Below are positions 8,498 through 48,643 of a stretch of 64,000 bases of DNA, one piece after another (positions within the stretch are counted from its first letter, which is position 1; every line of letters begins with the position of its first letter). A program made the position numbers and the translations under genes. The notes below the pieces were generated by a model. That model did not search any database. It was not told the origin of the DNA and saw only the letters and a list, made by a program, of their open reading frames with translations. The DNA lies in NCBI GenBank assembly GCA_963840965.1, contig CAWJAW010000006.1, positions 342,356 through 406,355 on the forward strand. The letters run 5' to 3'. This DNA comes from an uncultured Bacteroidales bacterium. Its GTDB lineage: Bacteria; Bacteroidota; Bacteroidia; Bacteroidales; VadinHA17.

Positions 8498-9833
8498 ATG
8501 CAAAAAGTGCCTCACCGTGTCTGATATAAAGCACACCATTGTGGATGACAGGGTGTGCCCAGAATGGACCGGATCCGCCATTTATTTTAAAACTGCTTAC
8601 AAGATCAAACTTAGCAGGATCGGGTCTGAGCAATCCCACATTGCCACTACGTTCCTCGTAAATATACAGCATACCGTCGGCGGCTATAACCGACCCCTTG
8701 TTATTCCAGTGTTTGTCCCACATCTTTTCTCCGGTGTTCCAGTCGATGCAGCACCAGTTCCCGTTCCCATTGTTTATCCAGTTTGCTCCGTAGATAAAGC
8801 CATCAACCATGACAACACCTCCGTGGTGAACATCAAGTACATCATGTGTCCATACAGCTTTAGCACTTTTTCCATCATCGCCGATATCAATCATTAAGCC
8901 CCCGTGATCATAGCCTCCGGTCATATAGACCCTGTTCCCTGAGAAAAGGGGAGTGACACACAAGATCTGACCTGTATCGTCTATATCGGATTTCCCAAGA
9001 GCCTCCCTGTGGTTTATTTTCCAAAGGATTGTTCCGTCAGATACATTTACACCAAAAATGAAACGGGGTGTTATGTTAATCAGGATCCTGATACCGGCCT
9101 TCTCAATCAGAATAGGGGAAAGGTAGGATGCCGGATCATTAATGCTTTCGGACCTCCAGATCACGTCGCCGGAATTCTTGTCAAAAGCAATGGTGGTGGT
9201 CTGAGGACCTCCGGAGGTGTAATAAATTTTGTCACCATCAATAATGGGCGATTCTGCTATTCCCCAGGGTCCGTAGGTGCCTCCATTCTCCTCACTTGCT
9301 TTCCTCGACCAGATTATTTCCCCCGAAATACCGTTTATGCATGCAAGGTCTCCAAATCCGCTCGTTACATATATTCTGTCGCCATCAACAGCAGGGGTAC
9401 ACCTGGTTTCAGGATACGATTTTTCCCAGAATCTGCCGTATGGAGTTTTCCATTTTATTTTTCCTGTGGGATCAAGTGCAATAAGAACATCGTTTGGTTC
9501 TTCAAGACCGGTGATGTAAATAGTATTATTCCCGAAAGTAACCGAGGAGTGGCCCTTGGGAAGTTCCGTATTCGACCATATCAGGGCTGGTCCGTCTTCG
9601 GGCCATGACTTCATCAGCCCTGTTTCGGCTGAGATACCTGTTCTGTTTGCTTCCCTCCATCCGGTAACCTTGCCATCATCTATCTGCACCGTTGTATTTT
9701 CAGACCTGTTTGCGAATGTGACGTCATTTTTTGTTTTGGTGACACCGGGATCGGAAAAGAAAAGGTAAAAAATCCCATACCCTATGGCTCCGATTATGAT
9801 AAGAGAGAGCACTATGATCAATATACGCTTCAT
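8478..9833 (-). CDS. Membrane-anchored PQQ-like beta-propeller repeat protein
   Basis: 451-aa ORF with an N-terminal anchor (MKRILIIVLSLIIIGAIGYGIFYLFF). Blades: GISGEIIWS, KNSGDVIWR, VSDGTILWK, WNTGEKMWD. It is a paralogue of the 9865-11127 product. Confidence 0.8.
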   Translation of the reverse strand: MKRILIIVLSLIIIGAIGYGIFYLFFSDPGVTKTKNDVTFANRSENTTVQIDDGKVTGWREANRTGISAETGLMKSWPEDGPALIWSNTELPKGHSSVTFGNNTIYITGLEEPNDVLIALDPTGKIKWKTPYGRFWEKSYPETRCTPAVDGDRIYVTSGFGDLACINGISGEIIWSRKASEENGGTYGPWGIAESPIIDGDKIYYTSGGPQTTTIAFDKNSGDVIWRSESINDPASYLSPILIEKAGIRILINITPRFIFGVNVSDGTILWKINHREALGKSDIDDTGQILCVTPLFSGNRVYMTGGYDHGGLMIDIGDDGKSAKAVWTHDVLDVHHGGVVMVDGFIYGANWINNGNGNWCCIDWNTGEKMWDKHWNNKGSVIAADGMLYIYEERSGNVGLLRPDPAKFDLVSSFKINGGSGPFWAHPVIHNGVLYIRHGEALFAYDIKEK

Positions 9834-9864: not shown

Positions 9865-11127
9865 CTATCTCGCCTTTAAATTAAATACCCCAAGGTATTC
9901 TCCGTGCCTGATGAACAACCGGCCTTTGCTAATTACCGGATGAGACCAGTATGGACCTGTACCCTTTGTAATACGGAACTGGCTTACCACATCGAGCTTT
10001 TCCTTGCCGGGTTTCACCAGACCTACATTTCCGGTGCGTTCTTCATAAATATAAAGCATTCCGTCGGCGGAAATAACTGATCCCTTATTGTGCCAATCGT
10101 TTATCCAGAGTGTTTTTCCGGTATTCCAGTCAACGCAAATCCATTTTCCCATTGAATTGTTATCATGAGTTGAACTGAAAATAAGGTCGCCAAGAAGTAC
10201 AGCGCCTCCGACATGAGGAGTAAGATCAGTGTTTTTCCATACAACGGTGGGAGCGGATCCGTCAGGATTGATCTTCAGTTTCACGGCAACCTGAGAGTAA
10301 CCGTTTGCAACAAGAAGAAATCCGTCGCGGTAGATTGGGGTGTTAATATGATTTCTTCGACCGCCCTGCTGTGCATTCAGACCTTCATAATCAACTTTCC
10401 AGAGAAGTTTTCCATCGGCTGTATTTATGCCAAGGATGCTCTTTGTTGTGACTGTAACAAGTATTTTCTTGCCTCCTGATTCGAAAACGAGCGGGTTTAC
10501 ATACTGGGTATCCTCATTTACTGGAGTTGTTGTCCATACAACTTTCCCGTCAGAGGTGTTGAATGCAACTGCTGCAGCAGCATTGCCTCCGGGGGTTCCG
10601 ATTACCTTGTTGTCCACAACCACCGGTGACTCCGAAATGCCAAATCTGGGCGCCGAAGCGTTATATTTCTGAAAGTAATTTACTGACCATACTATTTTCC
10701 CGTCAGTTCCAATGCAGACCATGTCGCCTGAACCACTGACAAGATAGAGCCTGCCGTTGGAATAGGTAGCGGTGCTTCGTGTATCGGGATAGTTACTGTC
10801 GGAAGATTTTCCGTATCGTGTTGACCATTTTACCTTCCCATCCTGGGTAAAGGCCGTAAGGTAGTCATCATCGCCTTTCCGTCCGGTGATATAAACCACA
10901 TCACCGGTCACAGTTGCACTCGAATAACCGGTACCGGCTTCCGATGATTCCCAAAGCAGTGATAGTCCGGCAGAAGGCCAGTTTTTCAGCAGCGACGACT
11001 CGGAATAAATACCGGTTCGGCCGCTGCCCCGCCATTCATTTACAGACTGTGAGTTAACCTGTAAAACGAAAATAAAGGTCAATAGACCCTGGATCAGTAG
11101 AAATTTAGTTTTTGCTGACATAATCAA
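9865..11127 (-). CDS. Secreted PQQ-like beta-propeller repeat protein (first gene of operon)
   Basis: 420-aa ORF with a signal peptide (KFLLIQGLLTFIFVLQVNSQ). Blades: GTDGKIVWS, TSDGKVVWT, TADGKLLWK, WNTGKTLWI. The C-terminal ~80 aa are near-collinear with the 8478-9833 product. Confidence 0.8.
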   Translation of the reverse strand: MIMSAKTKFLLIQGLLTFIFVLQVNSQSVNEWRGSGRTGIYSESSLLKNWPSAGLSLLWESSEAGTGYSSATVTGDVVYITGRKGDDDYLTAFTQDGKVKWSTRYGKSSDSNYPDTRSTATYSNGRLYLVSGSGDMVCIGTDGKIVWSVNYFQKYNASAPRFGISESPVVVDNKVIGTPGGNAAAAVAFNTSDGKVVWTTTPVNEDTQYVNPLVFESGGKKILVTVTTKSILGINTADGKLLWKVDYEGLNAQQGGRRNHINTPIYRDGFLLVANGYSQVAVKLKINPDGSAPTVVWKNTDLTPHVGGAVLLGDLIFSSTHDNNSMGKWICVDWNTGKTLWINDWHNKGSVISADGMLYIYEERTGNVGLVKPGKEKLDVVSQFRITKGTGPYWSHPVISKGRLFIRHGEYLGVFNLKAR

Positions 11128-11276: not shown

Positions 11277-12032
11277 TCATGTATTCCTGACTATCCATGC
11301 CTTGAACCCTGCTGCCCTGTTCTTGCTGACATAAATCCGCTCAGGGGTCTCAACATCCAGAGTAACAAGCAAACGGCTGTCGAACCAGATCGTCAGATTC
11401 CTGACACTGTTCCGGGCAACGATGAATTGTTTGTTCGCCCTGATGAATTCCTCCGGATTCAATGTCGACTCAATCTGATCAAGCGTCCCGGGATAGGAAT
11501 ACCAGCTGCCGTTCTTCAGGCAGACTCTGGTGTTCTTGTCGGTGGTATAGAAGCATGACACCTCGTCCATACCTACCGGCTGAAGCTTGTCCCGTACAGG
11601 AATCAGAATTTTGTCCCGGTGTGACTTCCAGGGTACAAGCTGGCTGAGTTGGTCCAGGTATTTGACAATATCCTGCCTGGTGAGCTTCCTGAATTTTTCC
11701 AGTGCCCGTTTTAGGTCATCCGTTTTTATCGGCTTAAGCAGATAATCAATACTGTTGACCCTGAACGCTTCGATGGCGTACTGATCAAAAGCAGTCGTGA
11801 AAATGACAGGAGTCTCAATGGTCAGCTTGTCAAAAATTGAAAAAGCAGATCCGTCGGACAGGTGGATATCCATCAGGATCAGATCGGGCATAGTATTGTT
11901 TTTTAACCACCTGACAGTCTGACTTATACTTTCAGTATAGCCGGCAACCTCAGTTTCAGGTTCAATTTCCTTCAGTATCTCTACAAGATTCTCGTAGGCC
12001 GCAGTTTCGTCTTCCACAATCAGTATTCTCAT
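11277..12032 (-). CDS. LytTR-family response regulator
   Basis: REC domain (MRILIVEDE, DLILMDIHLSDGSAF) plus a C-terminal LytTR-like DNA-binding domain (FIRANKQFIVARNSVRNL). Confidence 0.9.
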   Translation of the reverse strand: MRILIVEDETAAYENLVEILKEIEPETEVAGYTESISQTVRWLKNNTMPDLILMDIHLSDGSAFSIFDKLTIETPVIFTTAFDQYAIEAFRVNSIDYLLKPIKTDDLKRALEKFRKLTRQDIVKYLDQLSQLVPWKSHRDKILIPVRDKLQPVGMDEVSCFYTTDKNTRVCLKNGSWYSYPGTLDQIESTLNPEEFIRANKQFIVARNSVRNLTIWFDSRLLVTLDVETPERIYVSKNRAAGFKAWIVRNT

Positions 12033-12037: not shown

Positions 12038-13078
12038 CTATTTAAGAGGAAGATAAACGGTAAAAGTTTTGCCATCATTATCGATACGTATCTTCCGGTT
12101 CAGCAGCAGCAAGAATCGGCTTTCAAGGTTTTTGAGTCCGGTGCCGTTGGTTTCAGAGGGCACAAGCTTCGGATAAATGGGATTCGAAACCGCAAGCTCA
12201 AAGACGTCATTGAGCCATATCCTTACCTCCATCTTATGCTCACTGTCGATTGTGTTGTGAAGGACAATATTCTCAAGAAGAGGAAGAAGTGAAAGGACAG
12301 GTATCTTCAGATCGCGTTTATCAAACGGGACTTCTGCAGTGAATACAAGTTTTCTGGCAAAGCGGACTTCCATCATATAGCTGAAAGCTTTCAGAAAATC
12401 GAGCTCATCGGCAAGATTAACCATTACTTTTCTGTCGCTCTGAAGGATATAACGAAAAACATCCGAAAGCTTATTTACATATTCAAGAGTGAGTTCCTCG
12501 TTCTTCTTGCGTATCAGCAAGGTGAGTCCGTTAAGTGAGTTGAAGAAGAAATGTGGATTGATCTGATTGGTAAGTGCATTATATTGGCTTTCGAGATTTT
12601 CGATTCGCAGTTGCTCAATCTCATGCTCTTTTCTTCTCTGTTCCGAAACCAGGAATGTAATGTGACCTACAAGCATTGAAAAAATCAGAATCACAAAGAA
12701 CTGAAACAGAAGCAGTCCTGTAAACCATTCCTGTTTGGGGTTAAGAACCAGTGAAAACCCTATATAGATCCCGTAAGAGACCAGAGTAATCACCAAGCTG
12801 TAAACCAAACGTTTACTGAAAAAAAGAGTTTTCAGTTTCCTCAGATTGACACTTATCAGCAACCATGTCAGACAAGCAAAATATAGGTATCTGAAGATGA
12901 AGAAAAAAAGATGCACAGCATGCTTTGACTCCCCTAGATGATCACGTTCCATGGAAAAGAACGTGATATTGGGATAGATGAAGAACACCGAGCATATAAG
13001 ACTTAACAAAAACAGCCTGAGAGGAGTAATTTTCTCCGGAAGATTCGTTTCGTCCAGCTTTTTAAAAAGAGTTTTCAT
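12038..13078 (-). CDS. LytS/YehU-type sensor histidine kinase
   Basis: Multi-TM N-terminus. His_kinase (PF06580-type) signature NPHFFFNSLNGL, followed by an ATPase region. It lies 5 nt upstream of the response regulator. Confidence 0.85.
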   Translation of the reverse strand: MKTLFKKLDETNLPEKITPLRLFLLSLICSVFFIYPNITFFSMERDHLGESKHAVHLFFFIFRYLYFACLTWLLISVNLRKLKTLFFSKRLVYSLVITLVSYGIYIGFSLVLNPKQEWFTGLLLFQFFVILIFSMLVGHITFLVSEQRRKEHEIEQLRIENLESQYNALTNQINPHFFFNSLNGLTLLIRKKNEELTLEYVNKLSDVFRYILQSDRKVMVNLADELDFLKAFSYMMEVRFARKLVFTAEVPFDKRDLKIPVLSLLPLLENIVLHNTIDSEHKMEVRIWLNDVFELAVSNPIYPKLVPSETNGTGLKNLESRFLLLLNRKIRIDNDGKTFTVYLPLK

Positions 13079-13258: not shown

Positions 13259-15079
13259 TTAATCAGGTTTATTTTTTACAGTTCCATGATATCTTAAGTA
13301 TTTCCGCAGGGCTTCAACATGGTAAATAATCGGGTACAGCTCTTCGTCATACCACAGCATGGCAAAATAAAGGCCTATTGGGGCAGCATTAATATCAATC
13401 CGGTCAAGAAGCCAGCTAATCCCCCTCGAAGACTCCTCAGGGTATACCTCTGCAAGAGCGCTTATTGCCAGTGATGTCTCTTCCACCGAGCCTTCAGTCC
13501 CTGACTTCCCGCCCCAGCTACCCTCGATGTTTTGCTGTTTCAGAAGAAATTCCTGCGCTTTCCTTACCATAATATCTATCCTGTTGATGTATTCTTTTCC
13601 AGGACGTTTAAATCGGAGTGAATCGCTAAGGTAGATACAAACCTTGGCAGTGCCGTACACAGGATTTGTTTTGTCATCTGTCATCTGGTTTCCAAACCAC
13701 AACGGCAGCCATGATCCGTCATCCGACTGGTGCTTTTCCAGGTAAACGGTTGCCTTTGAGATAGTCCTGTCAATAGTGGCAAGCAGCTTTTTGTCCATTC
13801 TGTCATGAAGGACCTCGGCCGATTTCAGCAAAGCAAGCAATGCATGTCCGGTCAGATCGGCGCAGCTGCGGTCAAATGGCAGTTTACCCCAACCCTTGCA
13901 GAAGGTAGGAAATCCTCCGTCGCTATTTTGGAGTTTTATAAGCCATCTGCAACCATTTTCAACGGCAGATATTTCAGTCTTTTTCCCTGAAAAGAGAAGC
14001 AGTAGGGAAATGATAGCCCCCGGAGTGTCGTCGGCGTCAGGAACAGAGCCTGAATAGTTTGTCCAGCCCCAGCCGCCAGGAGATGCTCCATTGAAAGGAT
14101 GGATGGTTTTATACTGAAGTTTCAGGAGGTGATCCCGGAGGATATCGATTTCCTTTTGTTTCAAAGCAATGTTTATATCTTTCCCCATGGCCTTGATTGA
14201 AAGGGTGGTCACCCAGGTCGACAGATCCGTGTCGATCGGCCATCCGCCGTCCTCCCGCTGCTGGTTCCGAAGGAAACCAAGTCCCTTACGAACTGTATCA
14301 TTTTCGGTCTCTCCGCATTGAATAAGACACATAGCCACAAAACCTGTCAGCGGAATGGCTTCAAGAAAGCCTCCGCTTTCGGGAAGGAGTCCGTCCAGTT
14401 TTCTGATAGCAGGCCCTATGAGTTTCTCCCGTATCTGTCTGATTCCGGGTATGCCTGAGCTTCTCTTGCGGTGATGGTATATTCCAACGCCGATGAGGGC
14501 AGGGAGTGCATAGCTGACAACCTTTAAATTCAGGAACCTGTATAAGGAATCAGGCAGCAGGGTAAGCTCAAAGGGCAGGCGCGGAATCTTATCGAGTGAA
14601 GATGCGGGTAAAACGCCGCAAAGTGTAAGCATCGATAATATAGGAACCGAAAAAGTGTAATCATTTCCGTAAATATCCAGGATTGAACTAACAACACCCG
14701 AAGAATCCATTTTGATCCCGTAACCCGCCAACCAGTTATCCATTGCAGCAATAACATGTTTTCCCGAATCTCCGTCCTGACAGAAGTGAACTGCAGAGTA
14801 GCAAAGAAGAGTGGTGCTCAGGTTGCTTACCGATTCCGGAGTATCGCCATAACCTCCGTCTGCATTTATATTGCTGCAAAGCCATGTAAAACCTTTCTCA
14901 ACTCTTCCTGGATCGGCAGGTTCTTCTGACAGCTTCAAGGCAACTATCGACACTGATGTCGATAGTGCGCTTGTCGATAAACGGCCTGTCCAGAATCCCT
15001 CAGAATTGCGTTTTGCTATAAGGAGAGCAGCAAGTTCGTTGTATCTTTGAGTAATTCTATCCATGTCGGTATTAATCAT
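13259..15079 (-). CDS. Squalene-hopene-cyclase-like class II terpene cyclase
   Basis: 606-aa ORF. It has at least four QW-type repeats (KGLGFLRNQQREDGGW, NGCRWLIKLQNSDGGF, KATVYLEKHQSDDGSW, KAQEFLLKQQNIEGSW). A DxDD-type acid motif, VPDADDTPG, is encoded at 14027-14038. Confidence 0.8.
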   Translation of the reverse strand: MINTDMDRITQRYNELAALLIAKRNSEGFWTGRLSTSALSTSVSIVALKLSEEPADPGRVEKGFTWLCSNINADGGYGDTPESVSNLSTTLLCYSAVHFCQDGDSGKHVIAAMDNWLAGYGIKMDSSGVVSSILDIYGNDYTFSVPILSMLTLCGVLPASSLDKIPRLPFELTLLPDSLYRFLNLKVVSYALPALIGVGIYHHRKRSSGIPGIRQIREKLIGPAIRKLDGLLPESGGFLEAIPLTGFVAMCLIQCGETENDTVRKGLGFLRNQQREDGGWPIDTDLSTWVTTLSIKAMGKDINIALKQKEIDILRDHLLKLQYKTIHPFNGASPGGWGWTNYSGSVPDADDTPGAIISLLLLFSGKKTEISAVENGCRWLIKLQNSDGGFPTFCKGWGKLPFDRSCADLTGHALLALLKSAEVLHDRMDKKLLATIDRTISKATVYLEKHQSDDGSWLPLWFGNQMTDDKTNPVYGTAKVCIYLSDSLRFKRPGKEYINRIDIMVRKAQEFLLKQQNIEGSWGGKSGTEGSVEETSLAISALAEVYPEESSRGISWLLDRIDINAAPIGLYFAMLWYDEELYPIIYHVEALRKYLRYHGTVKNKPD

Positions 15080-15935
15080 TCAGAGAGCCCAGTGCTAGCA
15101 GGCCATAAAAAGTATACTCGATATCAGGATCAGGATCAAGCGGATGACCTGAAAAACCGCCTTCCCTGAATAGTGAATCTACAAAATCCAGCGAGTCCGG
15201 CCGTACTTCCCTCAGGTCGTATCCTTCAAACCATAGAGCATACAGTGCTACGGCAGTTGAAAGAAGATCGGATAAAGGAGTGGACCTGGTTGCCCTGAAA
15301 CCTCCCTTTCCGTCATAATATGACATCAGTGCATTAATAAGTTTATCCACAGGTTCCCTGAAACTCTTGCTGAGAACCAGCGAGGCTGCAATAACAGGGC
15401 AGGGGAGGGTTTCATGTCCTGTAACTGACGATAGGTTTTGCCTGATCCGGAACAAGCTTCTGTAATCCCTCAGGTAATAAAAACTCATCATGCTCAGGAA
15501 CGATCCGTAAAGTTGTTGATCTTTCATTCCTGCAGACTGCCTCAGTTTTGTGCCGAAGGATTTTCTGAGAGACTTTGCCTGTCCGCTGACAGCCGACAAA
15601 ATTGCAGCACAATGTAGATATACTCCCTCCGGTTCCTTCCGGCTGATCTCCGAGCTGACATAGGGCCAGACCAGTGAGCACTCCTGTTTCATTCCAAGTG
15701 CATCCGCAACAAACCAGCCAAAAAGAGTGTAATAAAGATCAGGATTCCCTGCCCTGTCCTTAAATCCGCCCGACTCTGCCTGTGAATTTCTGACGTAATC
15801 CCTCAGGCTGGCAGCAAATGCTGGGTCGAGAAGGTTCAGGGAAAGCTTCAGAATTTTTTCAGGACTTTTCCCTTCAAACTTCTTTAGATAAGGAGCTGCA
15901 AGAAGCCTATACATAATCTCCGAAAGTTTTTCCAA
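15072..15935 (-). CDS. Prenyltransferase/squalene-oxidase-repeat (alpha/alpha toroid) protein, half-size
   Basis: 287-aa ORF with spaced GGF repeats (AESGGFKD, GKGGFRA, REGGFSG) typical of prenyltransferase beta-subunit/terpene-cyclase toroids. I saw no DxDD motif. The start may be M at 15914, which gives an 8-nt overlap (ATGTATAG). Confidence 0.6.
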   Translation of the reverse strand: MEKLSEIMYRLLAAPYLKKFEGKSPEKILKLSLNLLDPAFAASLRDYVRNSQAESGGFKDRAGNPDLYYTLFGWFVADALGMKQECSLVWPYVSSEISRKEPEGVYLHCAAILSAVSGQAKSLRKSFGTKLRQSAGMKDQQLYGSFLSMMSFYYLRDYRSLFRIRQNLSSVTGHETLPCPVIAASLVLSKSFREPVDKLINALMSYYDGKGGFRATRSTPLSDLLSTAVALYALWFEGYDLREVRPDSLDFVDSLFREGGFSGHPLDPDPDIEYTFYGLLALGSLND

Positions 15936-17523
15936 CTATCTCATTAAGTGCGAGTTTAAGCTTCAGGTTGGTGATATCTTCCACGCACTGGTATGTCTTC
16001 TCCAGATACTCTGCAAGCATCGTTGTTATCTGTTCCCTGATGCTATATTTTTCTGCCATGAGATACAGTTCTTTCATTCTCTTGTTTTTCAACGCTTCTG
16101 TAACGACACTGAGGTCAGCTGCCCCGGCCTGTCCGGCCAGAAGTGAAATCAGAACCGACTGATCATCAAAGGACGAGAAGCCGTTTGCAACGGTGAAATC
16201 CTCAAGGTCATCCTTCATCTGGTAAGCGATTCCGATCAGATCGCTGAATTGTTCCAACAGTTCCAAAGTCTTCTTATCGGCACTTGACGCAATAGCCCCA
16301 ACCTGGAGTGACACCTTGAAGGCAGCAGAGGTTTTGTTCCTGAAAACCTCAATTATTTCATCCAGGGTGAGTATTCTTCCGTCGCGCCGGGCCATCAGTT
16401 CTTCTCCCTGTCCGATCGACATTGCCCTGTGACCCTGTGTAACTGCTTTAAAGCACTCACCGGTGCGGTCCGGAGACAGACCGCTTTCAGCCAGCAATCG
16501 GTAGCCCTCGCCGATAAGAAGATCGCCCAGGTTGATTGCAACAGGTATCCCGTAGCGGGTATGAATGGTTTCTTTTCCATACCGGAATGAATCATTGTCT
16601 TCAATGTCATCGTGAACCAGGGAGGCTTTATGGAAACACTCCACCGACATTGCCAGATGGGCCAGGAGGTCCAGATCCGGATTACTGTCAAATGCTTCAT
16701 AGGCAAGCACGGTAAGCAAAGGACGTATCCTTTTGCCTCCGGCCATAAGCATCTCCCTTACCATCTTTCCCGTTGCGGAACCGGCAAGTCCAATCATGCT
16801 ATCAATTCGCGACTCGGTGAAGAGGGCAGATGTTTTATCTTTCAAATTATTGATATTCAATAATTTAAAATCCGAATTCCTGTTAATGTAATTAATTTCC
16901 TCATTCACCCAGAGAGCATCGGCCTTTGTATCCTTACATCCGCATGTAACAAGGGGAATTCCGATAGCCGGAATCGAATATTTCGTAACCGAGCTGAACA
17001 TTTTTCTGAGCACGTCCATGCATCCTACTCCCACAACAGCATCAACCTTTCCGCTTTCAACAAGGCGGGTGGCAATTGTCGTGCCTTCTGCAACAATTGT
17101 AATGTATCCGAGGTCCTCCGCTTCCTTCAGGAAATTGCTGATACTGCAGTTTCCGCATTCACTGCACAAAAGGCCAAGTTCATCTTCAACTCCCGTGCAT
17201 AAATTACTGTTTCTAAGGCACATCGGAAGCAAAAGCATTCGGCGGTCGAATGGTATGGAACCAACAATGGGCCGCCATATTTCATTCCCCCCGCATACCA
17301 TTACAAATGCCTTGTGTCTTTCGTCCCAGTTGTTTTCCGCCATAAGTATGCCGGCGTAAACAGCCAGCTGATCGTATGAAACAGGCGGCATTATCTTCCT
17401 GTCAGAGAAGAATTTCCTCACTTTCTTCCTGATCTCCTCACGCTGCTCAGTATCCAGCGGAACAACCAGTGGCATAACAGCCTCCTGTTCAACTTCCTTT
17501 ATAGCCTGATTTATGTTATCCAT
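15907..17523 (-). CDS. DUF116-like Cys-rich domain fused to a trans-polyprenyl diphosphate synthase
   Basis: The N-terminal half matches my recollection of DUF116 (LLLPMCLRNSNLCTG, LCSECGNCSI, GYITIVAEGT, AVVGVGCMDVL). The C-terminal half carries both Asp-rich motifs: LVHDDIED (16597-16611) and QMKDDLED. I chose the start at MDNINQ (17523), which overlaps the upstream stop as ATGGATAA. Confidence 0.8.
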   Translation of the reverse strand: MDNINQAIKEVEQEAVMPLVVPLDTEQREEIRKKVRKFFSDRKIMPPVSYDQLAVYAGILMAENNWDERHKAFVMVCGGNEIWRPIVGSIPFDRRMLLLPMCLRNSNLCTGVEDELGLLCSECGNCSISNFLKEAEDLGYITIVAEGTTIATRLVESGKVDAVVGVGCMDVLRKMFSSVTKYSIPAIGIPLVTCGCKDTKADALWVNEEINYINRNSDFKLLNINNLKDKTSALFTESRIDSMIGLAGSATGKMVREMLMAGGKRIRPLLTVLAYEAFDSNPDLDLLAHLAMSVECFHKASLVHDDIEDNDSFRYGKETIHTRYGIPVAINLGDLLIGEGYRLLAESGLSPDRTGECFKAVTQGHRAMSIGQGEELMARRDGRILTLDEIIEVFRNKTSAAFKVSLQVGAIASSADKKTLELLEQFSDLIGIAYQMKDDLEDFTVANGFSSFDDQSVLISLLAGQAGAADLSVVTEALKNKRMKELYLMAEKYSIREQITTMLAEYLEKTYQCVEDITNLKLKLALNEIVGKTFGDYV

Positions 17524-18694
17524 AAGCTCCCATTCCAAAAAATGCAGTTTGTTTGGCAATCCTGTAAATAAAGTTTTTCTCAGGTATCACAGGGCAGGAT
17601 CCATGACTTGGCAGCCGGGGTGCTCTCTCAAGAGCATCCAGGTATTCAGGCCTGTTCGATGTGTTAATGGCATGATGCTTTTCACTGAAAGCTTTCACCC
17701 AGGCAGGATCTTCCATCAGCACACAGCCCTTTGTTTTCAAATGTATTTGCTCCCGGAAATCCCTCAGAAAATCAGAACCATCATAAGGTGATTTCAAGTC
17801 GCCCGATTTAACCCTATCTGCAGCTATTTGCAGAACCGGACAAGGTTCAACGTAACCGGCAGCATTAATATGATGACTCAGTCCGTCGGCTGCCGGGCAA
17901 AATGGTTCACCTTTGGCGCTCCAGTACGAATCAATCAGAACCATCGGAAACCTGGTACGTCCTTCAACAAGGAACTTTCTGAGACGCAGTATATCCTCCC
18001 CGTCAAGCGCAAGGTCATAATTGGGCATGCTGCCGGCTGGCCTGTAGATATAATACCAAAGGTAGAGGACTCCCATATCATGAAGCTTGTTTACAAATTC
18101 ATCCGACAGCGCCATGTCGATGTTCGATTTGCAGACGCTGATAGCCACACCGGTTATCAGTTTCTCCGACACGGCAGTACGAATAGCTTCAATAGTCCTG
18201 TTGTATATGTTATTTCCTCCGCGGCGGATGTCAGCAACCAGTTCATCCCCTTCAAGACTTATCAACGGAGTAACGTTGCCGTTTTTCCTGAGTTCCGCCG
18301 CTACTGATCTGGTAAGCATGGTGCCGTTCGTGAAGAGCTGGAAATAGCAATCCTGGTGCGTCCTGAAAATTTCCATCAGATCCGGATGCATAAGAGGTTC
18401 TCCTCCAAGAATCCCGGTGAAATAAGATCCATGTCTTTTCCCGTCCTCAATAACTGAATATATCTTTTCAAGCGGCATGTAATCAGGTTTACCGGCGACC
18501 GTGACCCAGCACCCCTGGCATCGAAGGTTACAGTCGTTCGTTACGGAAATGAATTGAAAAGCAGGGAAGGGCAAACCTTTCCTGACTCTCTTTCGGAATT
18601 TCCTGAAGCCAAGAAAGCCTTTCCATCCCATATTTATCAGGAATTTTCTCCGGCAGTTTCTGTCAGTATTAATAAAGTTTTTATATATCGACAT
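17516..18694 (-). CDS. Radical SAM enzyme, unassigned subfamily
   Basis: CX3CX2C motif CNLRCQGC (18509-18532), followed by GGEPLMHP and FTNGT motifs. I saw no B12-binding N-terminal domain and no SPASM-type Cys-rich C-terminus. Confidence 0.85.
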   Translation of the reverse strand: MSIYKNFINTDRNCRRKFLINMGWKGFLGFRKFRKRVRKGLPFPAFQFISVTNDCNLRCQGCWVTVAGKPDYMPLEKIYSVIEDGKRHGSYFTGILGGEPLMHPDLMEIFRTHQDCYFQLFTNGTMLTRSVAAELRKNGNVTPLISLEGDELVADIRRGGNNIYNRTIEAIRTAVSEKLITGVAISVCKSNIDMALSDEFVNKLHDMGVLYLWYYIYRPAGSMPNYDLALDGEDILRLRKFLVEGRTRFPMVLIDSYWSAKGEPFCPAADGLSHHINAAGYVEPCPVLQIAADRVKSGDLKSPYDGSDFLRDFREQIHLKTKGCVLMEDPAWVKAFSEKHHAINTSNRPEYLDALERAPRLPSHGSCPVIPEKNFIYRIAKQTAFFGMGAYG

Positions 18695-18709
18695 TGCTTC
18701 AGCTAAAAT

Positions 18710-19510
18710 TTAGGATGACTCATCACGTGCCCTGTCCCTCTCCGAGAGCGCCTTTTTCATAGCTTCTTTTCTGATGATCGACTGCCTTTTCAGTTTCCTT
18801 CCCTGGAGGGCCTGGTATATGTCATTTCCCAGGAATTCTTTAATATCATGTGCCTGTCTCTGCTGCTCCGATTGCTCGTCTATCTCCTCCGAACCGCCGA
18901 TTGCACCTCCGTGCCTGTATTTCGGAAAGATGATAGCAGTGGCAGGACAAATCCTTGCACAAGCCGGACAATTGTTCTTGCAGCCTTCCGGATTGGTAAC
19001 AATCACATGGCCTTCTTCCTTTTTGTAAACCCCGAAAAGGCAGAAATCAGCACACTGGCCGCAAGAGGTGCATCTCGAATAATCTATAAGCGGATACCAT
19101 GAGGGCCATCCTGATCCTTCTGTAATTTCAGTGACGAGGGGCGTTCCGTTCCGGTACCCGCAGAATTCGTCAATCTGCCTTGCAGCTTCTGAGACAGATG
19201 AATCAATCAGATTAAGATGACTGAACTGGGGAGAGGGGGTATTTAAATCCCTGGCCTGCCCGAACAGAATTTCCATGCTTCTTCTGTGACAACCAAGGAC
19301 AAGACAATCGTCACCAGCAGAAAGCAATTCCGCCAGCTTATCCTTCTTTTTTGCGGCTAAGCCGCACAGATCCGACAACCTTGTGACCCTTGAGGGTACT
19401 TTTCCCAGATGTCCTTCTACATCCTTCAGCAAGTCCGCATCGATTCTCTCGCCGCCGCAATTGCATAATATAATATGTTTGCCGGTAATCAGCCCGGAAA
19501 TATTTTCCAT
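18710..19510 (-). CDS. 2x[4Fe-4S] ferredoxin-domain protein with an N-terminal Cys-containing domain
   Basis: CTSCGQCADFC and CKNNCPACARICP motifs. The N-terminal IILCNCGG ... LVLGCHRRS resembles MvhD/FlpD-type domains, but this is a weak resemblance from memory. It is the first gene of the terpenoid operon. Confidence 0.7.
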   Translation of the reverse strand: MENISGLITGKHIILCNCGGERIDADLLKDVEGHLGKVPSRVTRLSDLCGLAAKKKDKLAELLSAGDDCLVLGCHRRSMEILFGQARDLNTPSPQFSHLNLIDSSVSEAARQIDEFCGYRNGTPLVTEITEGSGWPSWYPLIDYSRCTSCGQCADFCLFGVYKKEEGHVIVTNPEGCKNNCPACARICPATAIIFPKYRHGGAIGGSEEIDEQSEQQRQAHDIKEFLGNDIYQALQGRKLKRQSIIRKEAMKKALSERDRARDESS

Positions 19511-19705: not shown

Positions 19706-20764
19706 ATGGAAATGGATGATTTTGATGATTTTAAGATCATTTTATGGCTTATACTCTTTCTTCTTTTTGGCATTGTGATAATTACCTGCAAACGATTGCC
19801 GGATGAAGTGATCATGACCGTTAACGGGCCTGAATCGCCCGGCAGGATGGGTATTACCCTTGAGCACGAGCACATTCTGGTGGATTTTATCGGTGCCGAC
19901 AGCACAGGATATTTCAGATGGAATAAGGATTCGGTGATAGCAAAAGCTCTTCCTTTTGTATTGGCCGCAAAGCAAAATGGAGTGAAAACCTTTATTGAGG
20001 CCACTCCGCAGTGGCTGGGAAGGGACCCTGTAATGCTTAAATCACTCTCAAGAGCCTCAGGAATAAACTTTATTACAAATACCGGATATTACGGTGCACA
20101 AAGCAATAAATACATCCCAAAAAGTATTTTTTCTATGGATGCAGCAGAAATTGCTGATCTGTGGATCGAAGAATATAAAAACGGAATTGAGGGAACAGGT
20201 ATCAAACCGGGATTTATAAAGATCGCCGTGAATCCCGACGATCAGCTTTCTCCTGAACACATAAAAATCATAAAAGCAGCTTCGATTGCCCATCTTGAAA
20301 CCGGACTTGTGATCGCATCCCACACCGGACCTGATGGTCCGGCCTTTGAACAGATTGAAATCCTTAAGCAATCCGGTGCCGATCCTTCGGCTTTCATCTG
20401 GGTTCATGCCCAGAGAGGAACCATTGAAGGAAATATAAGGGCTGCAAGGGAAGGAACATGGATCTCTCTCGATAACATCCGGATAAGAAATATCGAACCC
20501 GGCTCCCCTAACAGTGTGGAATGGTATGCCGACAGGATAGCCCGGCTCAAGGATGAAGGCCTTCTTGAAAAAGTTCTTGTCTCTCACGATTCCGGATGGT
20601 ATGACCCTGATAAGCCTCAAGGAGGAAACTTCAACGGTTATAACGACATCTTTGATGCCTTATTACCGGCCCTCAGAAACAGGGGTTTTACCGATGATGA
20701 CATCGACCAGATCCTTGTTAAAAACCCGGGCAGGGCGTATGCAATCAGAATCAGAAAATTGTAG
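19706..20764 (+). CDS. Phosphotriesterase-family (PTE/PHP-like) amidohydrolase, possible lipoprotein
   Basis: GITLEHEHILVDF metal-binding HxH motif and VLVSHDSGW near the C-terminus. The N-terminus LFLLFGIVIITC looks like a lipoprotein signal. An alternative start is MTVNGP at 19814. Confidence 0.75.
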   Translation: MEMDDFDDFKIILWLILFLLFGIVIITCKRLPDEVIMTVNGPESPGRMGITLEHEHILVDFIGADSTGYFRWNKDSVIAKALPFVLAAKQNGVKTFIEATPQWLGRDPVMLKSLSRASGINFITNTGYYGAQSNKYIPKSIFSMDAAEIADLWIEEYKNGIEGTGIKPGFIKIAVNPDDQLSPEHIKIIKAASIAHLETGLVIASHTGPDGPAFEQIEILKQSGADPSAFIWVHAQRGTIEGNIRAAREGTWISLDNIRIRNIEPGSPNSVEWYADRIARLKDEGLLEKVLVSHDSGWYDPDKPQGGNFNGYNDIFDALLPALRNRGFTDDDIDQILVKNPGRAYAIRIRKL

Positions 20765-20827
20765 TGCCAGAATAATTTATCTTGTCTTCACTTCTGACAG
20801 TCTAACCCAAATCCTTACAAAACCCTT

Positions 20828-22258
20828 ATGAAACCTGCAATCCCTCTGACCCTCTGCACATCACTCGCAGTTGCTTCCTGCTCACAGGCAGGAAAGGACT
20901 CACCCCTTCCCAATATTGTTTACATTCTGGCCGACGACCTCGGCTATGGTGATCTGAGTTGTTATGGCCAGAAGAAATTCTTAACCCCCAATATCGACAG
21001 GCTAGCCAGTCAGGGAATGCTTTACCGTCAGCATTATACAGGCTGCACGGTTAGCGCTCCGTCGCGGTCGTGTCTCATGACCGGACTTCATACCGGGCAC
21101 ACTCCCATAAGAGGCAACAAGGAGTGGAAACCGGAAGGTCAATGGCCTCTTCCGGCGACATCTGTCACAGTGGCTGAAATGCTAAAGACAAAGGGCTACT
21201 CAACAGGAGCCTACGGCAAATGGGGTCTTGGCTATATCAATAGCGAGGGTGATCCCAACTCCCAGGGCTTCGACGAATTCTATGGCTACAACTGTCAGCG
21301 GCTTGCCCATAACTACTTTCCCGACCATTTGTGGCATAACAGGGAAATGATTCTCCTGCATGCCAACGACAGCAGCCGCACAGGTGCCTACAGTCCGGAC
21401 CTTATCCATGCCGAGGCCCTGAAATTCATCGAAAAGAACAGGAACAATAAGTTTTTCATGTTCTACCCCACAACCATTCCCCATGCCGAACTGGTGGCTA
21501 AGGAAGAGTACATGCAAAAATTCAGGGGTAAATTTGATCCTGAAAAGGTATTCAAAGGCGTTGATGACGGTCCTGAATTCAGACAGGGTCCCTATGGCTC
21601 ACAGCCCGAATCCCACGCAGCCTTTGCAGCTATGGTGACTCAGCTTGACGACTATGTGGGTGAGATAATGGAAAAACTGGCAGAGCTTGGTCTTGAAGAA
21701 AATACGATTGTAATTTTTGCATCCGACAACGGCCCCCATCTTGAAGGCGGCGCCGATCCCGACTACTTCGAAAGTAACGGACCCCTCAGGGGAAATAAGA
21801 GGGATATGTATGAGGGCGGAATCAGGACACCGATGATAGTAAGATGGCCTGACCGGGTGAGACCGGGATCCGTATCTGATCACATTTCAGCATTCTGGGA
21901 TATAATGCCGACAATTGCAGAAATAGCTGGAATTGACGTCCCTGCAGGAACTGACGGGATTTCTTTCCTTCCTGAATTGCTAGGTAAGAAGCAGAAAAAA
22001 CACGAATACCTCTACTGGGAATTCCACGAGCAGGGCGGAAAGATAGCAGTAAGAATGGGAGACTGGAAAGCGGTTAAGCTGAATGCCGACAAAGGGCCGG
22101 AGAGCACTATCGAGCTTTATGACCTTTCGGCTGATGAAGGTGAAACAACTGACCTGGCACCATCCAATCCTGACCTGGTAAAGAAACTGGAACAAGTGAT
22201 GAATGATGCACATGTTCCATCAGAAATTTTTCCATTCCCCTTTGAAGTAAGTAAGTAA
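20828..22258 (+). CDS. Sulfatase (Ser-type formylglycine motif)
   Basis: PNIVYILADDLGYGD and the FGly motif S-A-P-S-R-S-C-L-M-T-G. N-terminal lipoprotein-like signal. Confidence 0.9.
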   Translation: MKPAIPLTLCTSLAVASCSQAGKDSPLPNIVYILADDLGYGDLSCYGQKKFLTPNIDRLASQGMLYRQHYTGCTVSAPSRSCLMTGLHTGHTPIRGNKEWKPEGQWPLPATSVTVAEMLKTKGYSTGAYGKWGLGYINSEGDPNSQGFDEFYGYNCQRLAHNYFPDHLWHNREMILLHANDSSRTGAYSPDLIHAEALKFIEKNRNNKFFMFYPTTIPHAELVAKEEYMQKFRGKFDPEKVFKGVDDGPEFRQGPYGSQPESHAAFAAMVTQLDDYVGEIMEKLAELGLEENTIVIFASDNGPHLEGGADPDYFESNGPLRGNKRDMYEGGIRTPMIVRWPDRVRPGSVSDHISAFWDIMPTIAEIAGIDVPAGTDGISFLPELLGKKQKKHEYLYWEFHEQGGKIAVRMGDWKAVKLNADKGPESTIELYDLSADEGETTDLAPSNPDLVKKLEQVMNDAHVPSEIFPFPFEVSK

Positions 22259-22259
22259 A

Positions 22260-23777
22260 ATGAACCTTAAACTCTTGACAGGATCAGCCGGAATTATTTC
22301 AGCATCACTGACCCAGATAAGCTTTTCGCAACCTGCGGAAAAGCCCAATATAATCATTATTCTTGCCGACGATCTTGGCTATGGCGACGTCAGCTGCTAT
22401 GGTGCAACCCGTCTGAAAACGCCGAATATTGACAGGATTGCAAACCAGGGACTACAGTTTACGAATGGCTATTGCACCTCAGCAACGAGCACCCCTTCGC
22501 GGTATTCACTGCTCACCGGACAATATGCCTGGCGGCGTGAAGGCACCAGTATTCTGCCCGGGGACGCTTCTGCCCTGATTAAACCAGGCAGCATCACCCT
22601 TCCTTCAGTAATAAAAACCGCCGGATATACAACCGGCGTTGTGGGTAAGTGGCACCTCGGACTTGGTCCCGAAGGAGGTCCCGACTGGAACGGTGAAATC
22701 AGACCGGGACCACTGGATATCGGCTTCGATTACAGCTTTTTAATTCCTGCCACAGGCGATCGTGTACCCTGTGTATATGTTGAAAACAGGAGGGTGGTGG
22801 AACTTGATCACGCTGATCCGATTTCAGTCGATTACAGTAAAAAGATCGGGGACTGGCCCACCGGCAAGGAGAACCCTGAACTCCTTAAAATGCATCCCAG
22901 CCACGGGCACGACATGACCATTGTAAACGGAATCAGCCGTATCGGTTACATGACCGGCGGAAGGTCAGCACTGTGGATCGATGAGGATATGGCCGATGTC
23001 ATTACCTCCAAGGCAGTTAAGTTCATCGAAGATAATCATGAAGTACCATTCTTTCTCTACTTCGCAACCCACGACATCCATGTTCCGAGGGTTCCCAACG
23101 GACGGTTCGCAGGCAAAAGCGGAATGGGCCCCAGGGGGGATGCAATCCTTGAATTCGACTGGTCAGTGGGAGAGATAGTAAAAGCGGTTAAAAGAATGAA
23201 GTTAGAAAAGAACACCCTTATAATTGTTACCAGTGATAACGGTCCGGTGGTGGATGACGGCTACCGCGACCAGGCGGTTGAACTTCTGGGTTCTCACAAG
23301 CCGGCCGGAAAACTTCGCGGAGGAAAATACAGCGCTTTTGAGGGAGGAACAAGAGTGGTTTTCATAACTTCCTGGAAAGGAACGATAAAGAAAGGCGTTT
23401 CCGATGCATTATTCAGCCAGATCGACCTGATGGCTTCGCTTGCAGGTCTGGCAGGAGCTATAATCCCTGAAGGCGGAGCTCCGGACAGCAGGAACCACAT
23501 GGATGTACTGACCGGAAAATCGGACAAATGCCGGGAGTGGGTAGTGGAACAACCATCCGGGAACAGGCTGTCAATAGTCAGTAAAGGATGGAAACTTATT
23601 GAACCGGGCCAGGGACCTAAGATCCAGGTCAACACGAACACCGAAACCGGATATGACAAGAATTACCAGCTGTATAATCTCCAGACTGACCCGGGAGAAA
23701 AGAATAATGAAGCAAGTAGAGAGCCGGCTGTTGTTAAGGAATTAACAGATCTCCTTAACTCTATAAAAGCCAGATGA
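22260..23777 (+). CDS. Sulfatase (Ser-type)
   Basis: PNIIIILADDLGYGD and the motif S-T-P-S-R-Y-S-L-L-T-G. It starts 1 nt after the preceding stop. Confidence 0.9.
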   Translation: MNLKLLTGSAGIISASLTQISFSQPAEKPNIIIILADDLGYGDVSCYGATRLKTPNIDRIANQGLQFTNGYCTSATSTPSRYSLLTGQYAWRREGTSILPGDASALIKPGSITLPSVIKTAGYTTGVVGKWHLGLGPEGGPDWNGEIRPGPLDIGFDYSFLIPATGDRVPCVYVENRRVVELDHADPISVDYSKKIGDWPTGKENPELLKMHPSHGHDMTIVNGISRIGYMTGGRSALWIDEDMADVITSKAVKFIEDNHEVPFFLYFATHDIHVPRVPNGRFAGKSGMGPRGDAILEFDWSVGEIVKAVKRMKLEKNTLIIVTSDNGPVVDDGYRDQAVELLGSHKPAGKLRGGKYSAFEGGTRVVFITSWKGTIKKGVSDALFSQIDLMASLAGLAGAIIPEGGAPDSRNHMDVLTGKSDKCREWVVEQPSGNRLSIVSKGWKLIEPGQGPKIQVNTNTETGYDKNYQLYNLQTDPGEKNNEASREPAVVKELTDLLNSIKAR

Positions 23778-23819
23778 AATATGAAACAAATTAAAGGCAC
23801 TTTTTGATATGATAACCAT

Positions 23820-25304
23820 ATGAATCAGACAATGATAACCCTACGGTCAACACTTAATCTCGGGCTTGTTTCACTGGCTGCAGTACAGGCAGGCGCCCGG
23901 ACGACAGAATCTTTACAACCCCGCACCCCGAATATAATTCTTATCCTAATGGATGATATGGGTTATGGAGACATCGGCAGGACGGGAGCTGTACAATATA
24001 ATACACCAAATCTCGACAGGCTGGCCTCCCATGGAATGCAGTTCACTTGGTATTATTGCCCGCAGGCTGTGAGCAGTGCTTCGAGGGCAGGACTGTTGAC
24101 CGGCTGCTACCCAAACAGGGTAGGCATTACAGGAGCCCTGATGCCATGGGCTGTCAATGGAATAAACAGCCAGGAAACAACAATAGCTGAAACACTTAAA
24201 ACAAGGGGATACCATACAGGAGTAATTGGTAAATGGCACCTGGGACATCACAGGGAATTTCTTCCATTGCAGCATGGATTCGATGAATATTATGGAATTC
24301 CCTATTCCAACGACATGTGGCCCGTCGATTTTGACGGTATACCCATTCATCTTAAAGACACCACAAGCAATAAAATGAAGTACCCCGTGCTGCCTCTGAT
24401 CGAAGGCAATGAAAAAACGGGAGAAGTCAGGACCCTCTCTGATCAGGACAAACTGACCTCGGATTATACCCAAAGGGCAGTGAAGTTCATTGAAAGCCAT
24501 GCAAAGGAACCCTTCTTCCTTTATTTTCCACATTCGATGGTTCACATACCGCTTGGAGTATCCTCAACATTCCGGGGCAAGAGCAACCAGGGATTATACG
24601 GCGATGTCATGATGGAAGTTGACTGGTCGGTAGGGGAGATAATGAAGGCCCTTGAACGAAACGGCCTGGATAACAATACACTTGTTATATTCACCAGCGA
24701 CAACGGTCCCTGGCTAAACTTTGGTAACCATGCCGGATCAACCGGCGGACTTCGCGAAGGCAAGGGAAGCACCTGGGAAGGAGGACACAGGGTTCCCTGT
24801 ATAATGAAATGGCCGGGTGTCATCCCTGAAGGCACAATATGCAACCAGCTGGCCTCATCGATAGACATTCTCCCAACAATCGCCAGCATTACAGGGGCAG
24901 ATCTTCCTGCATTGAAAATTGACGGTGTCAGTATTCTTCCACTTATGATGGGAGAAGAAAATATTTCCCCCCGCCGTGAATTCTACTATTATTATCAGAC
25001 CAACAGCCTGGAAGCCGTCCAGCGCGATTTCTGGAAACTGGTTTTGCCTCATCAGGGACGTACCTACAGGGATATGAAACCGGGAGCGGACGGCTGGCCG
25101 GGTCCGACAGGTACTGAGACGATTTCAGAACCTCAGTTATTCGATCTCCGGCGCGATCCGGGTGAATGGTATAACGTGGCAATGTATTATCCCGAAAAGG
25201 TTAAAGAACTTTTGCAACTTGCTGATGAAGCAAGAAATGACCTTGGTGATGCTCTTACAGATACCCCGGGCATGAACAGGAGAAAAGCAGGAACGCTTAA
25301 ATAA
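23820..25304 (+). CDS. Sulfatase (Ser-type, Ala at +2)
   Basis: PNIILILMDDMGYGD and the motif S-S-A-S-R-A-G-L-L-T-G. Confidence 0.9.
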   Translation: MNQTMITLRSTLNLGLVSLAAVQAGARTTESLQPRTPNIILILMDDMGYGDIGRTGAVQYNTPNLDRLASHGMQFTWYYCPQAVSSASRAGLLTGCYPNRVGITGALMPWAVNGINSQETTIAETLKTRGYHTGVIGKWHLGHHREFLPLQHGFDEYYGIPYSNDMWPVDFDGIPIHLKDTTSNKMKYPVLPLIEGNEKTGEVRTLSDQDKLTSDYTQRAVKFIESHAKEPFFLYFPHSMVHIPLGVSSTFRGKSNQGLYGDVMMEVDWSVGEIMKALERNGLDNNTLVIFTSDNGPWLNFGNHAGSTGGLREGKGSTWEGGHRVPCIMKWPGVIPEGTICNQLASSIDILPTIASITGADLPALKIDGVSILPLMMGEENISPRREFYYYYQTNSLEAVQRDFWKLVLPHQGRTYRDMKPGADGWPGPTGTETISEPQLFDLRRDPGEWYNVAMYYPEKVKELLQLADEARNDLGDALTDTPGMNRRKAGTLK

Positions 25305-25311
25305 GTAAAAA

Positions 25312-25369
25312 GTTGGCAGTTGGCAGTTGGCAGAATTTGGAGCCCTGTGCCCTGTGCCCTGTGCCCTGA
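25312..25369. repeat. Two adjacent 7-bp tandem arrays: (GTTGGCA)x3 then (GCCCTGT)x3-4
   Basis: Read directly. GTTGGCA repeats at 25312-25332. GCCCTGT/GCCCTGA repeats at 25342-25369 and decays further on. The arrays lie in the intergenic gap between two sulfatase genes. Confidence 0.9.
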
Positions 25370-25421
25370 GCCGCACGCCAACAACAAGTAACCAGCAACA
25401 AACAAAATACCCTCAAACCCA

Positions 25422-48452: not shown

Positions 48453-48525
48453 GCCACCTTAGCTCAGTTGGTAGAGCAGCTCATTCGTAATGAGCAGGTC
48501 CGGGGTTCGAGTCCCCGAGGTGGCT
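48453..48525 (+). tRNA. tRNA-Thr (anticodon CGT)
   Basis: Folded by hand. Acceptor GCCACCT/AGGTGGC, D-arm GCTC-AGTTGGTA-GAGC, anticodon arm GCTCA-TTCGTAA-TGAGC, T-arm CGGGG-TTCGAGT-CCCCG. Confidence 0.95.

Positions 48526-48569: not shown

Positions 48570-48643
<74 letters not shown>

Follow-up and report, generated by a model that had tools for sequence, protein, structure and literature searches.

In silico analysis of a 64,000-nucleotide stretch of DNA from an uncultured Bacteroidales bacterium (contig CAWJAW010000006.1, positions 342,356 to 406,355; hereafter the window) has revealed an operon of five genes, whose products include a prenyl diphosphate synthase, a class II terpene cyclase, iron-sulfur (Fe-S) proteins and a radical SAM enzyme. 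The operon is best explained as encoding a pathway, not characterised so far, that needs no oxygen and leads from a precursor other than squalene to a cyclised isoprenoid lipid; a probability of about one half is assigned to this reading. The substrate of the cyclase would be a linear polyprenyl species. The core of the original prediction for this DNA, namely a self-supplied prenyl chain combined with a class II cyclase in an uncharacterised set of enzymes, is thus also the best-supported reading here.

The five genes are located at positions 13259-19510 of the window, all on the minus strand. In successive order they encode: (i) an Fe-S protein of 266 residues (18710-19510); (ii) a radical SAM enzyme of 392 residues (17516-18694); (iii) a DUF116 domain fused to a polyprenyl synthase (DUF116-PPS), 538 residues counted from the ATG (15907-17523); (iv) a toroid protein of 280 residues, likewise counted from the ATG (15072-15914); (v) a cyclase of 606 residues (13259-15079). 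The junctions have been read base by base and confirm the co-directional, packed arrangement originally described, with one 15-nt gap followed by three 8-nt overlaps, ATGGATAA, ATGTATAG and ATGATTAA, which share the pattern ATGnnnTAA/TAG. The toroid length of 287 residues given at that time had been counted from an upstream TTG; this start is rejected because it is incompatible with the 8-nt overlap that the same prediction describes. The domain assignments made for the operon proteins agree with the Pfam and NCBIfam scans, and alignments place the catalytic acid of the cyclase and both DDxxD motifs of the synthase at homologous positions. Neither the operon nor its leader sequence gave a match in Rfam, and the scan for sigma-70 promoters and terminators did not rise above background level. 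A weak hairpin with a T-run follows the stop codon of the cyclase gene and was not counted as a terminator.

The last gene of the operon encodes a class II enzyme that is built from two domains (beta-gamma) and retains the DxDD proton donor intact. Pfam models of both halves are matched (SQHop_cyclase_N with 74 bits, SQHop_cyclase_C with 97 bits), and the sequence possesses a DADD motif at residues 348-351 as well as four QW-like repeats. In a sequence search of the Protein Data Bank (PDB), its VPDADDT segment is aligned to YPDVDDT (D374-D377) of the squalene-hopene cyclase (SHC) of Alicyclobacillus (AaSHC), in a match that reaches only 49.7 bits as a whole; PDxDDT is present in 267 of the 268 aligned members of the family. 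The AlphaFold model (pLDDT 92.3) has AaSHC as its best fold (TM-score 0.75/0.73, E 8.7e-21, 19% identity), followed by drimenyl diphosphate synthase, human oxidosqualene cyclase (OSC) and bacterial diterpene cyclases. The curated cut-offs are missed in every case: 74.7 bits against 431.1 for the hopene cyclase model TIGR01507, 103.3 against 322.7 for the generic squalene/oxidosqualene cyclase model TIGR01787, 72.6 against 851 for the OSC model TIGR03463 and 35.2 against 500 for the tetrahymanol synthase model TIGR04277. From these results it follows that the protein is a beta-gamma class II cyclase and not a canonical SHC, OSC or tetrahymanol synthase.

The enzyme belongs to a large family of Fibrobacteres-Chlorobi-Bacteroidetes (FCB) and Planctomycetes-Verrucomicrobia-Chlamydiae (PVC) bacteria, distinct from SHC, OSC and tetrahymanol synthase. 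At least 486 representatives of 50%-identity clusters match it at E <=1e-30. Its close relatives are found in Bacteroidales and Prolixibacteraceae, including the cultured Draconibacterium, Tangfeifania and Maribellus, and its distant relatives, with 38-46% identity, in genomes named as Kiritimatiellia, Phycisphaerae, Planctomycetota and Verrucomicrobia. The family is common in anoxic habitats, and in public annotations relatives carry the label "squalene--hopene cyclase".

A clade termed "SHC-like" or of "unknown function" has previously been described in FCB bacteria (Bacteroidota) and in PVC bacteria (Planctomycetota, Verrucomicrobiota and Kiritimatiellia), with a length of 550-700 residues and retained catalytic residues (Santana-Molina et al. 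2020, PMC7306690; triterpenoid cyclase phylogeny of 2025, PMC12414744). The same studies place FCB/PVC sequences of this type outside SHC and find SHC itself nearly absent from FCB bacteria. The substrate of the clade is stated to be unknown, and it is reported as sister to cyclases of head-to-tail epoxy-polyprenyl chains (PMC12414744); for its Planctomycetes members, a non-squalene precursor has been suggested from genomic context (PMC7306690). With 606 residues, Bacteroidales and Prolixibacteraceae hosts and a retained DxDD, the cyclase of the operon agrees with this description, and the two are probably the same family, matched here by length, hosts, residues and scores. The published accounts of the clade give no substrate, product or gene cluster; what is added here are the conserved partners (Fe-S protein, radical SAM enzyme, DUF116-PPS and toroid), the fusions and an adjacent periplasmic module. 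The stem of the clade carries unusually many substitutions on the surface that forms the SHC-type dimer (PMC12414744), which would be explained if the toroid protein had become a new partner on that surface.

The synthase domain of the third gene product lacks none of the features expected of a trans-prenyl diphosphate synthase that elongates chains. The fusion protein matches PF01976 (DUF116, COG1852) with 100.3 bits (cut-off 25) and PF00348 (polyprenyl_synt) with 147.7 bits (cut-off 27), and it contains the first Asp-rich motif (FARM) as DDIED at residue 305 and the second (SARM) as DDLED at residue 438. Both ECFHKASLVHDDIED (FARM) and DDLED (SARM) are conserved in the FCB and the PVC versions of the protein. 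In the alignment of six FCB and five distant, PVC-type synthases the signature ECFHKA[ST]L[VI]HDDIED is kept. Residues R265, R267, K397, Q435, D438 and D439 are invariant, and the motifs involved in elongation (GKRIRP, FARM, KT and YQxxDD) are all retained. The DUF116 part shows, in the same eleven proteins (six FCB, five PVC-type), a C102-x6-C109-x10-C120-x2-C123-x2-C126 motif, and C168 and C196 are conserved in addition. DUF116 has been predicted to be a flavodoxin-like Fe-S electron-transfer domain, and its fusion to a polyprenyl synthase has already been noted in Pirellula staleyi (Makarova et al., PMC5898192).

Scores of the synthase against the NCBIfam equivalog models (farnesyl diphosphate, geranylgeranyl diphosphate (GGPP), HepT, OPP and others) are all far below the cut-offs. 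Among solved structures, those of the archaeal-type GGPP synthases 1WY0 and 5JFQ are closest, and these enzymes carry Tyr or Phe at position -5 before the FARM; the DUF116-PPS family possesses Ala-Ser at -5/-4 and Phe at -8. Mutagenesis of such synthases indicates that a small residue at -5 lengthens the products beyond C20 and that a bulky residue at -8 limits their length. Read against this background, Ala at -5 and Phe at -8 would tentatively suggest a product of roughly C25-C30.

The toroid protein is a physical partner of the cyclase or, in some relatives, an additional domain fused to it. The single sequence from the window matched no Pfam model; among its homologues 20 of 25 match PF00432 (best E 3.3e-9), and the sequence profile matches the repeats of RabGGTase beta. 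The AlphaFold model (pLDDT 90.2) is a single alpha/alpha toroid, with the monodomain class II cyclases 8PAK and MstE as best PDB folds, followed by drimenyl diphosphate synthase and RabGGTase beta. Although MstE and the myxobacterial 8PAK/8PAJ are the best structural matches, at a query-normalised TM-score of about 0.6, the toroid protein differs from these monodomain enzymes: it has neither DxD nor DxDD, it is shorter, and a two-domain cyclase is either its separate partner or part of the same chain. The DxDD motif is absent from all 72 homologues checked. A conserved PDIEYT segment was considered as a degenerate DxDD and not accepted as evidence of one, the same D...Y/T pattern being present in every repeat of the toroid. 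Unlike the beta subunits of protein prenyltransferases, the protein has no conserved Cys or His able to bind Zn. In a profile-profile comparison of toroid and cyclase, the alignment was confined to a short repeat segment and allowed no assignment to a beta or gamma domain. The partnership is concluded from natural fusions to the cyclase N-terminus in some lineages (proteins P0129, P0149 and P0195); the toroid of the window shares 30% identity with the N-terminus of P0129 (E 2e-25).

The first gene product carries a Fer4 dicluster (2x[4Fe-4S]) at residues 138-195, with the conserved cysteines of the ferredoxin domain lying at 147-188, and an N-terminal domain with four nearly invariant cysteines (C16, C18, C49 and C74). 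It matches PorD- and HgcB-like models, all below their cut-offs. The radical SAM enzyme scores 70 bits against PF04055 (cut-off 29.5) and contains CNLRCQGC at residues 55-62, in which C55, C59 and C62 (CX3CX2C) are invariant; C266, C285 and C324 are also conserved, and a CX2CX5CX3C motif is absent. The best match of its family profile is SkfB (66 bits), in an alignment that extends through the auxiliary-cluster region to residue 315, and weak SPASM matches appear in 7 of 26 homologues, so that, judged from its sequence, the enzyme is probably of the twitch/SPASM type. Against TIGR03470, the model of the adenosyl-hopene transferase HpnH, it reaches 41.8 bits (cut-off 225.05), no better than against many unrelated radical SAM models. 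Sequence searches of the PDB with the radical SAM enzyme and with the Fe-S protein returned generic relatives only, and a 2026 review of lipid-modifying radical SAM enzymes holds no counterpart of the operon's enzyme.

The Fe-S protein had been proposed as a dedicated electron donor of the radical SAM enzyme. The comparison of related loci (cited below by L numbers) indicates that this assignment was too narrow, since the protein stays beside the DUF116-PPS where the radical SAM gene is absent or has been swapped. Locus L088, from Phycisphaerae, has the gene order Fe-S protein (homologous over its full length, 33% identity, E 7e-40), DUF116-PPS, major facilitator superfamily transporter, toroid and cyclase, with no radical SAM gene. 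In L109, L132 and L139 (and, by position, L140) an unrelated radical SAM protein of 512-542 residues with a B12-domain-like N-terminus stands between the Fe-S protein and the synthase, and in L082 a toroid-cyclase fusion adjoins a PhpK-like B12 radical SAM gene. The Fe-S protein is therefore read as a companion of the DUF116-synthase and not of the radical SAM enzyme alone; Fe-S protein and synthase together would form the constant redox pair, and the radical SAM enzyme would be a lineage-variable tailoring component.

The gene set as a whole is conserved across phyla, in Bacteroidota as well as in the Planctomycetes-Verrucomicrobia group. A search for the same neighbourhood, proposed with the original prediction, found all five genes with unchanged order and strand in 63 of the 65 related genome loci that had sufficient upstream flank to be counted, down to 46% identity of the cyclase and about 30% of the Fe-S protein. 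Such retention of order and strand makes the operon arrangement far more regular than chance would allow. The core is found in high-GC and other distant loci (L081, L084, L086 and L090), and the PVC-type loci that bear on synteny are L081, L084, L086, L088, L090 and L091. In metagenome loci anchored on DUF116-PPS, again with enough flank, the Fe-S protein gene is present in 33/41, the radical SAM gene in 32/41, the toroid gene in 37/46 and the cyclase gene in 29/46. In two loci of this family the usual cyclase slot, after the DUF116-synthase and toroid genes, is occupied by a reading frame that matches no Pfam or NCBIfam model (L115, 6531-8297, 589 residues; L109, 9979-11610, 544 residues). 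The five-gene unit originally delimited is real; in many genomes, however, it is part of a larger set, as a periplasmic module of beta-propeller and NapGH-like proteins recurs beside it.

The supply of squalene has been checked in the window reading frames of at least 150 residues, nearly all of which were scanned against Pfam, and in the recurrent neighbours within +/-10 kb of 80 related loci. No squalene/phytoene synthase (SQS_PSY-type) and no sqs or hpnCDE gene has been identified in either set, the whole genome not having been searched; within that scope the earlier statement that these genes are lacking holds.

The operon resembles the hopanoid (hpn) loci in the two-domain (beta-gamma) fold of the cyclase, its DxDD and QW repeats, and a radical SAM gene beside the cyclase. 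It differs from them in that a head-to-tail prenyl synthase stands in place of HpnCDE, a toroid and Fe-S proteins are added, and no other hpn genes recur nearby. A further parallel is given by Bacillus sporulenol, a sesquarterpene made through HepS/HepT, YtpB and SqhC, where the substrate of a class II cyclase is not squalene but comes from a regular polyprenyl diphosphate; the synthase of the operon can be aligned end to end with HepT. In contrast to that pathway, a YtpB-type class IB synthase and HepS have not been seen among the operon genes or their recurrent neighbours, the cyclase lies outside the Bacillota SqhC group of the literature, and the Fe-S and radical SAM parts have no counterpart. 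The epoxy-polyprenyl cyclases Lon15 and AtoE, to which the unknown clade is reported to be sister, also act on all-head-to-tail chains (C25 and C40). These enzymes need O2-dependent epoxidation, whereas the cyclase of the operon keeps DxDD, the motif of alkene protonation, and is accompanied by Fe-S and radical SAM genes instead of an epoxidase. The "terpenoid cluster" of Bipolaricaulota (DUF116, SHC, HpnH-like radical SAM and prenyl synthase) is a loose parallel only, with no biochemical link. No characterised pathway matching the operon has been found in the literature searched, and to that extent the combination is as unfamiliar as first claimed; the cyclase lineage and the DUF116-PPS fusion, on the other hand, had already been published.

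The periplasmic module of the window is also encoded on the minus strand and has been assigned from Pfam and NCBIfam matches. It comprises four PQQ_2 beta-propellers with N-terminal anchors or signal peptides (9865-11127, 8478-9833, 7037-8581 and 2385-4109), an NHL-like protein (6121-7035), a ferredoxin with a twin-arginine translocation (Tat) export signal recognised by its SRRDFVRK motif (5383-6087) and a NapH/MauN-like membrane polyferredoxin with seven transmembrane (TM) helices (4093-5376). As listed, the propeller frames 7037-8581 and 8478-9833 share about 100 nt; the starts given for the former and for the ferredoxin frame (in the latter a TTG) probably lie too far upstream, the Tat signal beginning at an internal Met. 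Beta-propeller genes are present in 35 related loci, mostly directly downstream of the cyclase gene, and genes for NHL-like proteins and ferredoxins in 18-25; the module accompanies the cyclase in FCB as well as PVC loci, many in number. In L084, core and module genes overlap within one long operon, which also contains a NuoEF-like module, and protein P0161 is a cyclase-TM-PQQ fusion, with a transmembrane helix linking cyclase and propeller.

In the proposed pathway the synthase would produce an all-trans polyprenyl diphosphate of C20 or longer, on which the attached DUF116 Fe-S domain may perform or gate a reductive step, with the Fe-S protein encoded nearby feeding it. The toroid-cyclase pair would then protonate the terminal double bond and fold the chain into rings. 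The radical SAM enzyme would contribute a tailoring step that varies with lineage, the enzyme being probably of the twitch type here and B12-domain-like in some other lineages, while one locus has none, and the adjacent beta-propeller/NapGH-like module might use, modify or export the product.

Several observations weigh against this pathway or parts of it. The context of the FARM, DDIEDN, also resembles eukaryotic-type C20 synthases, so a C20 product is possible. A redox-catalytic role of DUF116 is a prediction from sequence, and the argument from Fe-S genes that persist without a radical SAM gene draws on few loci, namely L088 and two in the metagenome set. Cyclase-family genes occur alone, without the other four operon genes (L085, L087 and L089), or with only the beta-propeller/NapGH-like module (L036). 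Nine DUF116-PPS loci, for example L105, L115, L137 and L145, possess a toroid gene and no adjacent cyclase gene. Given these lone cyclases and cyclase-less synthase loci, the five genes do not form an obligate unit.

Instead of elongating a chain for direct cyclisation, the operon might build an irregular precursor: DUF116-PPS, Fe-S protein and radical SAM enzyme would couple two prenyl chains, by reductive head-to-head or radical tail-to-tail joining, and the cyclase would then fold a squalene-like hydrocarbon made without any Sqs/HpnCDE-type enzyme or NADPH. Three predicted Fe-S proteins stand around the synthase, one of them fused to it, and the Fe-S protein and DUF116-PPS are the most constant pair of the set. 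Anaerobes with cyclases but no known squalene synthase exist, and undiscovered precursor pathways are expected in them (PMC7306690); C-C bond formation between isoprenoid chains is known from radical SAM enzymes such as Tes (2026 review), and the structure of GDGT-MAS is a weak match to the operon's radical SAM enzyme. The proposal is nevertheless considered unlikely. The synthase keeps all the elongation motifs typical of regular head-to-tail synthases, a radical SAM enzyme that can be replaced by an unrelated type or lost is an improbable core coupling enzyme, and catalysis by DUF116 has no precedent.

The product may, alternatively, be a membrane cofactor and not a structural lipid, that is a cyclised prenyl compound, possibly a meroterpenoid or quinone-like, which serves the neighbouring periplasmic redox module. 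The two modules are linked by recurrent adjacency, by translational coupling and by the cyclase-TM-propeller fusion. NapH-like proteins are quinol dehydrogenases, L084 adds a NuoEF-like NADH module, and the fold of the toroid is most similar to MstE-type meroterpenoid cyclases. The absence of a recurrent aromatic prenyltransferase (UbiA/ABBA) or aromatic-head biosynthesis gene from the loci makes such a role doubtful, as does the fact that about half of the loci, including those of Draconibacterium orientale and Tangfeifania, have no such module within 10 kb.

Ordinary hopanoid synthesis, in which a divergent SHC would act on squalene made elsewhere in the genome and the radical SAM enzyme would perform an HpnH-like side-chain extension, is judged very unlikely. 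AaSHC is indeed the best structural match, the DxDD and QW motifs are present, a radical SAM gene lies beside the cyclase gene as in hpn loci, and the relatives are annotated as squalene-hopene cyclases. However, the scores against TIGR01507 (74.7 against 431.1) and HpnH (41.8 against 225.05) and the 19% identity to AaSHC are low, a head-to-tail prenyl synthase is conserved in the operon, and sqs, hpnCDE, hpnG and other hpn genes do not recur nearby. Moreover, the literature places the FCB/PVC sequences outside SHC and finds SHC nearly absent from FCB bacteria (PMC12414744, PMC7306690). It is scarcely credible that the cyclase-like proteins are instead non-catalytic or hydrolytic alpha/alpha toroids, comparable to TED domains, glycoside hydrolases or prenyltransferase beta subunits, for although the fold is common to many non-cyclases, the toroid lacks DxDD and there are weak Pfam matches to TED_complement and Pec_lyase, 267 of 268 members across phyla retain PDxDDT where SHC has its proton donor, the gene adjoins and is often translationally coupled to that of a prenyl diphosphate synthase, and every structural match that spans both domains over the full length is a class II terpene cyclase.

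Hopanoids, sterols and other cyclic terpenoids are regulators of membranes and major molecular fossils. The size of the family and its frequency in anoxic habitats imply that the product could be an abundant, overlooked lipid. A more specific version of the preferred reading, speculative and on balance improbable, is that FCB/PVC bacteria, many of them anaerobes of sediments and digesters, use the operon to make polycyclic lipids of the tricyclohexaprenol type from a regular C25-C35 chain, in a ferredoxin-driven manner without O2 or squalene. The tricyclic terpanes (cheilanthanes) found in rocks, which have no known origin, would then have a biological one, and DUF116 would gain its first catalytic role, as the reductive partner of a prenyl synthase. 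The locus also turns the open question of the clade into a defined experiment, as it offers a synthase that likely supplies the substrate, a partner domain of the cyclase that looks obligate, and redox and radical components; all five genes are carried by the cultured Draconibacterium, Maribellus and Tangfeifania. Identification of the substrate would constrain the evolution of alkene-using and epoxide-using cyclases (PMC12414744).

Between the operon and the propeller module, two regulatory genes have been identified by Pfam on the minus strand: a LytTR response regulator (11277-12032) and a His_kinase sensor (12038-13078). The pair is present in 13-14 related loci at varying positions, either upstream of the Fe-S protein gene or inside the propeller module, and is a possible regulator. 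A CobW-like G3E GTPase of the metallochaperone type and a SaoE/SO_0444-like permease recur beside the cluster in many relatives and are absent from the window. They have been located in L010, L018, L022, L026, L032-L034 and L074 (directly after the cyclase gene), in L090 (3636-4784) and in L084 (1060-2136); their recurrence hints at the delivery of a metal centre.

On the other side of the operon, positions 19706-28832 contain a phosphotriesterase-family gene, four sulfatase genes and a radical SAM/SPASM protein resembling anaerobic sulfatase maturases, with a SEC-C motif (27444-28832). This looks like a set for the utilisation of sulfated glycans and suggests that the host lives anaerobically. 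At a distance of about 25 kb from the operon, a trio of the lipid-export type is encoded on the minus strand (39518-43963), consisting of an MMPL-family transporter, a LolA-like protein and a 464-residue protein without a family match; hopanoid producers possess the MMPL/RND exporter HpnN. A DUF5777 membrane beta-barrel is encoded beside a YceI-like protein on the plus strand (32531-33966), and YceI proteins bind polyisoprenoids. Finally, tandem genes for tRNA-Thr (CGT) and tRNA-Gly (CCC) are located at 48453-48643 of the plus strand.

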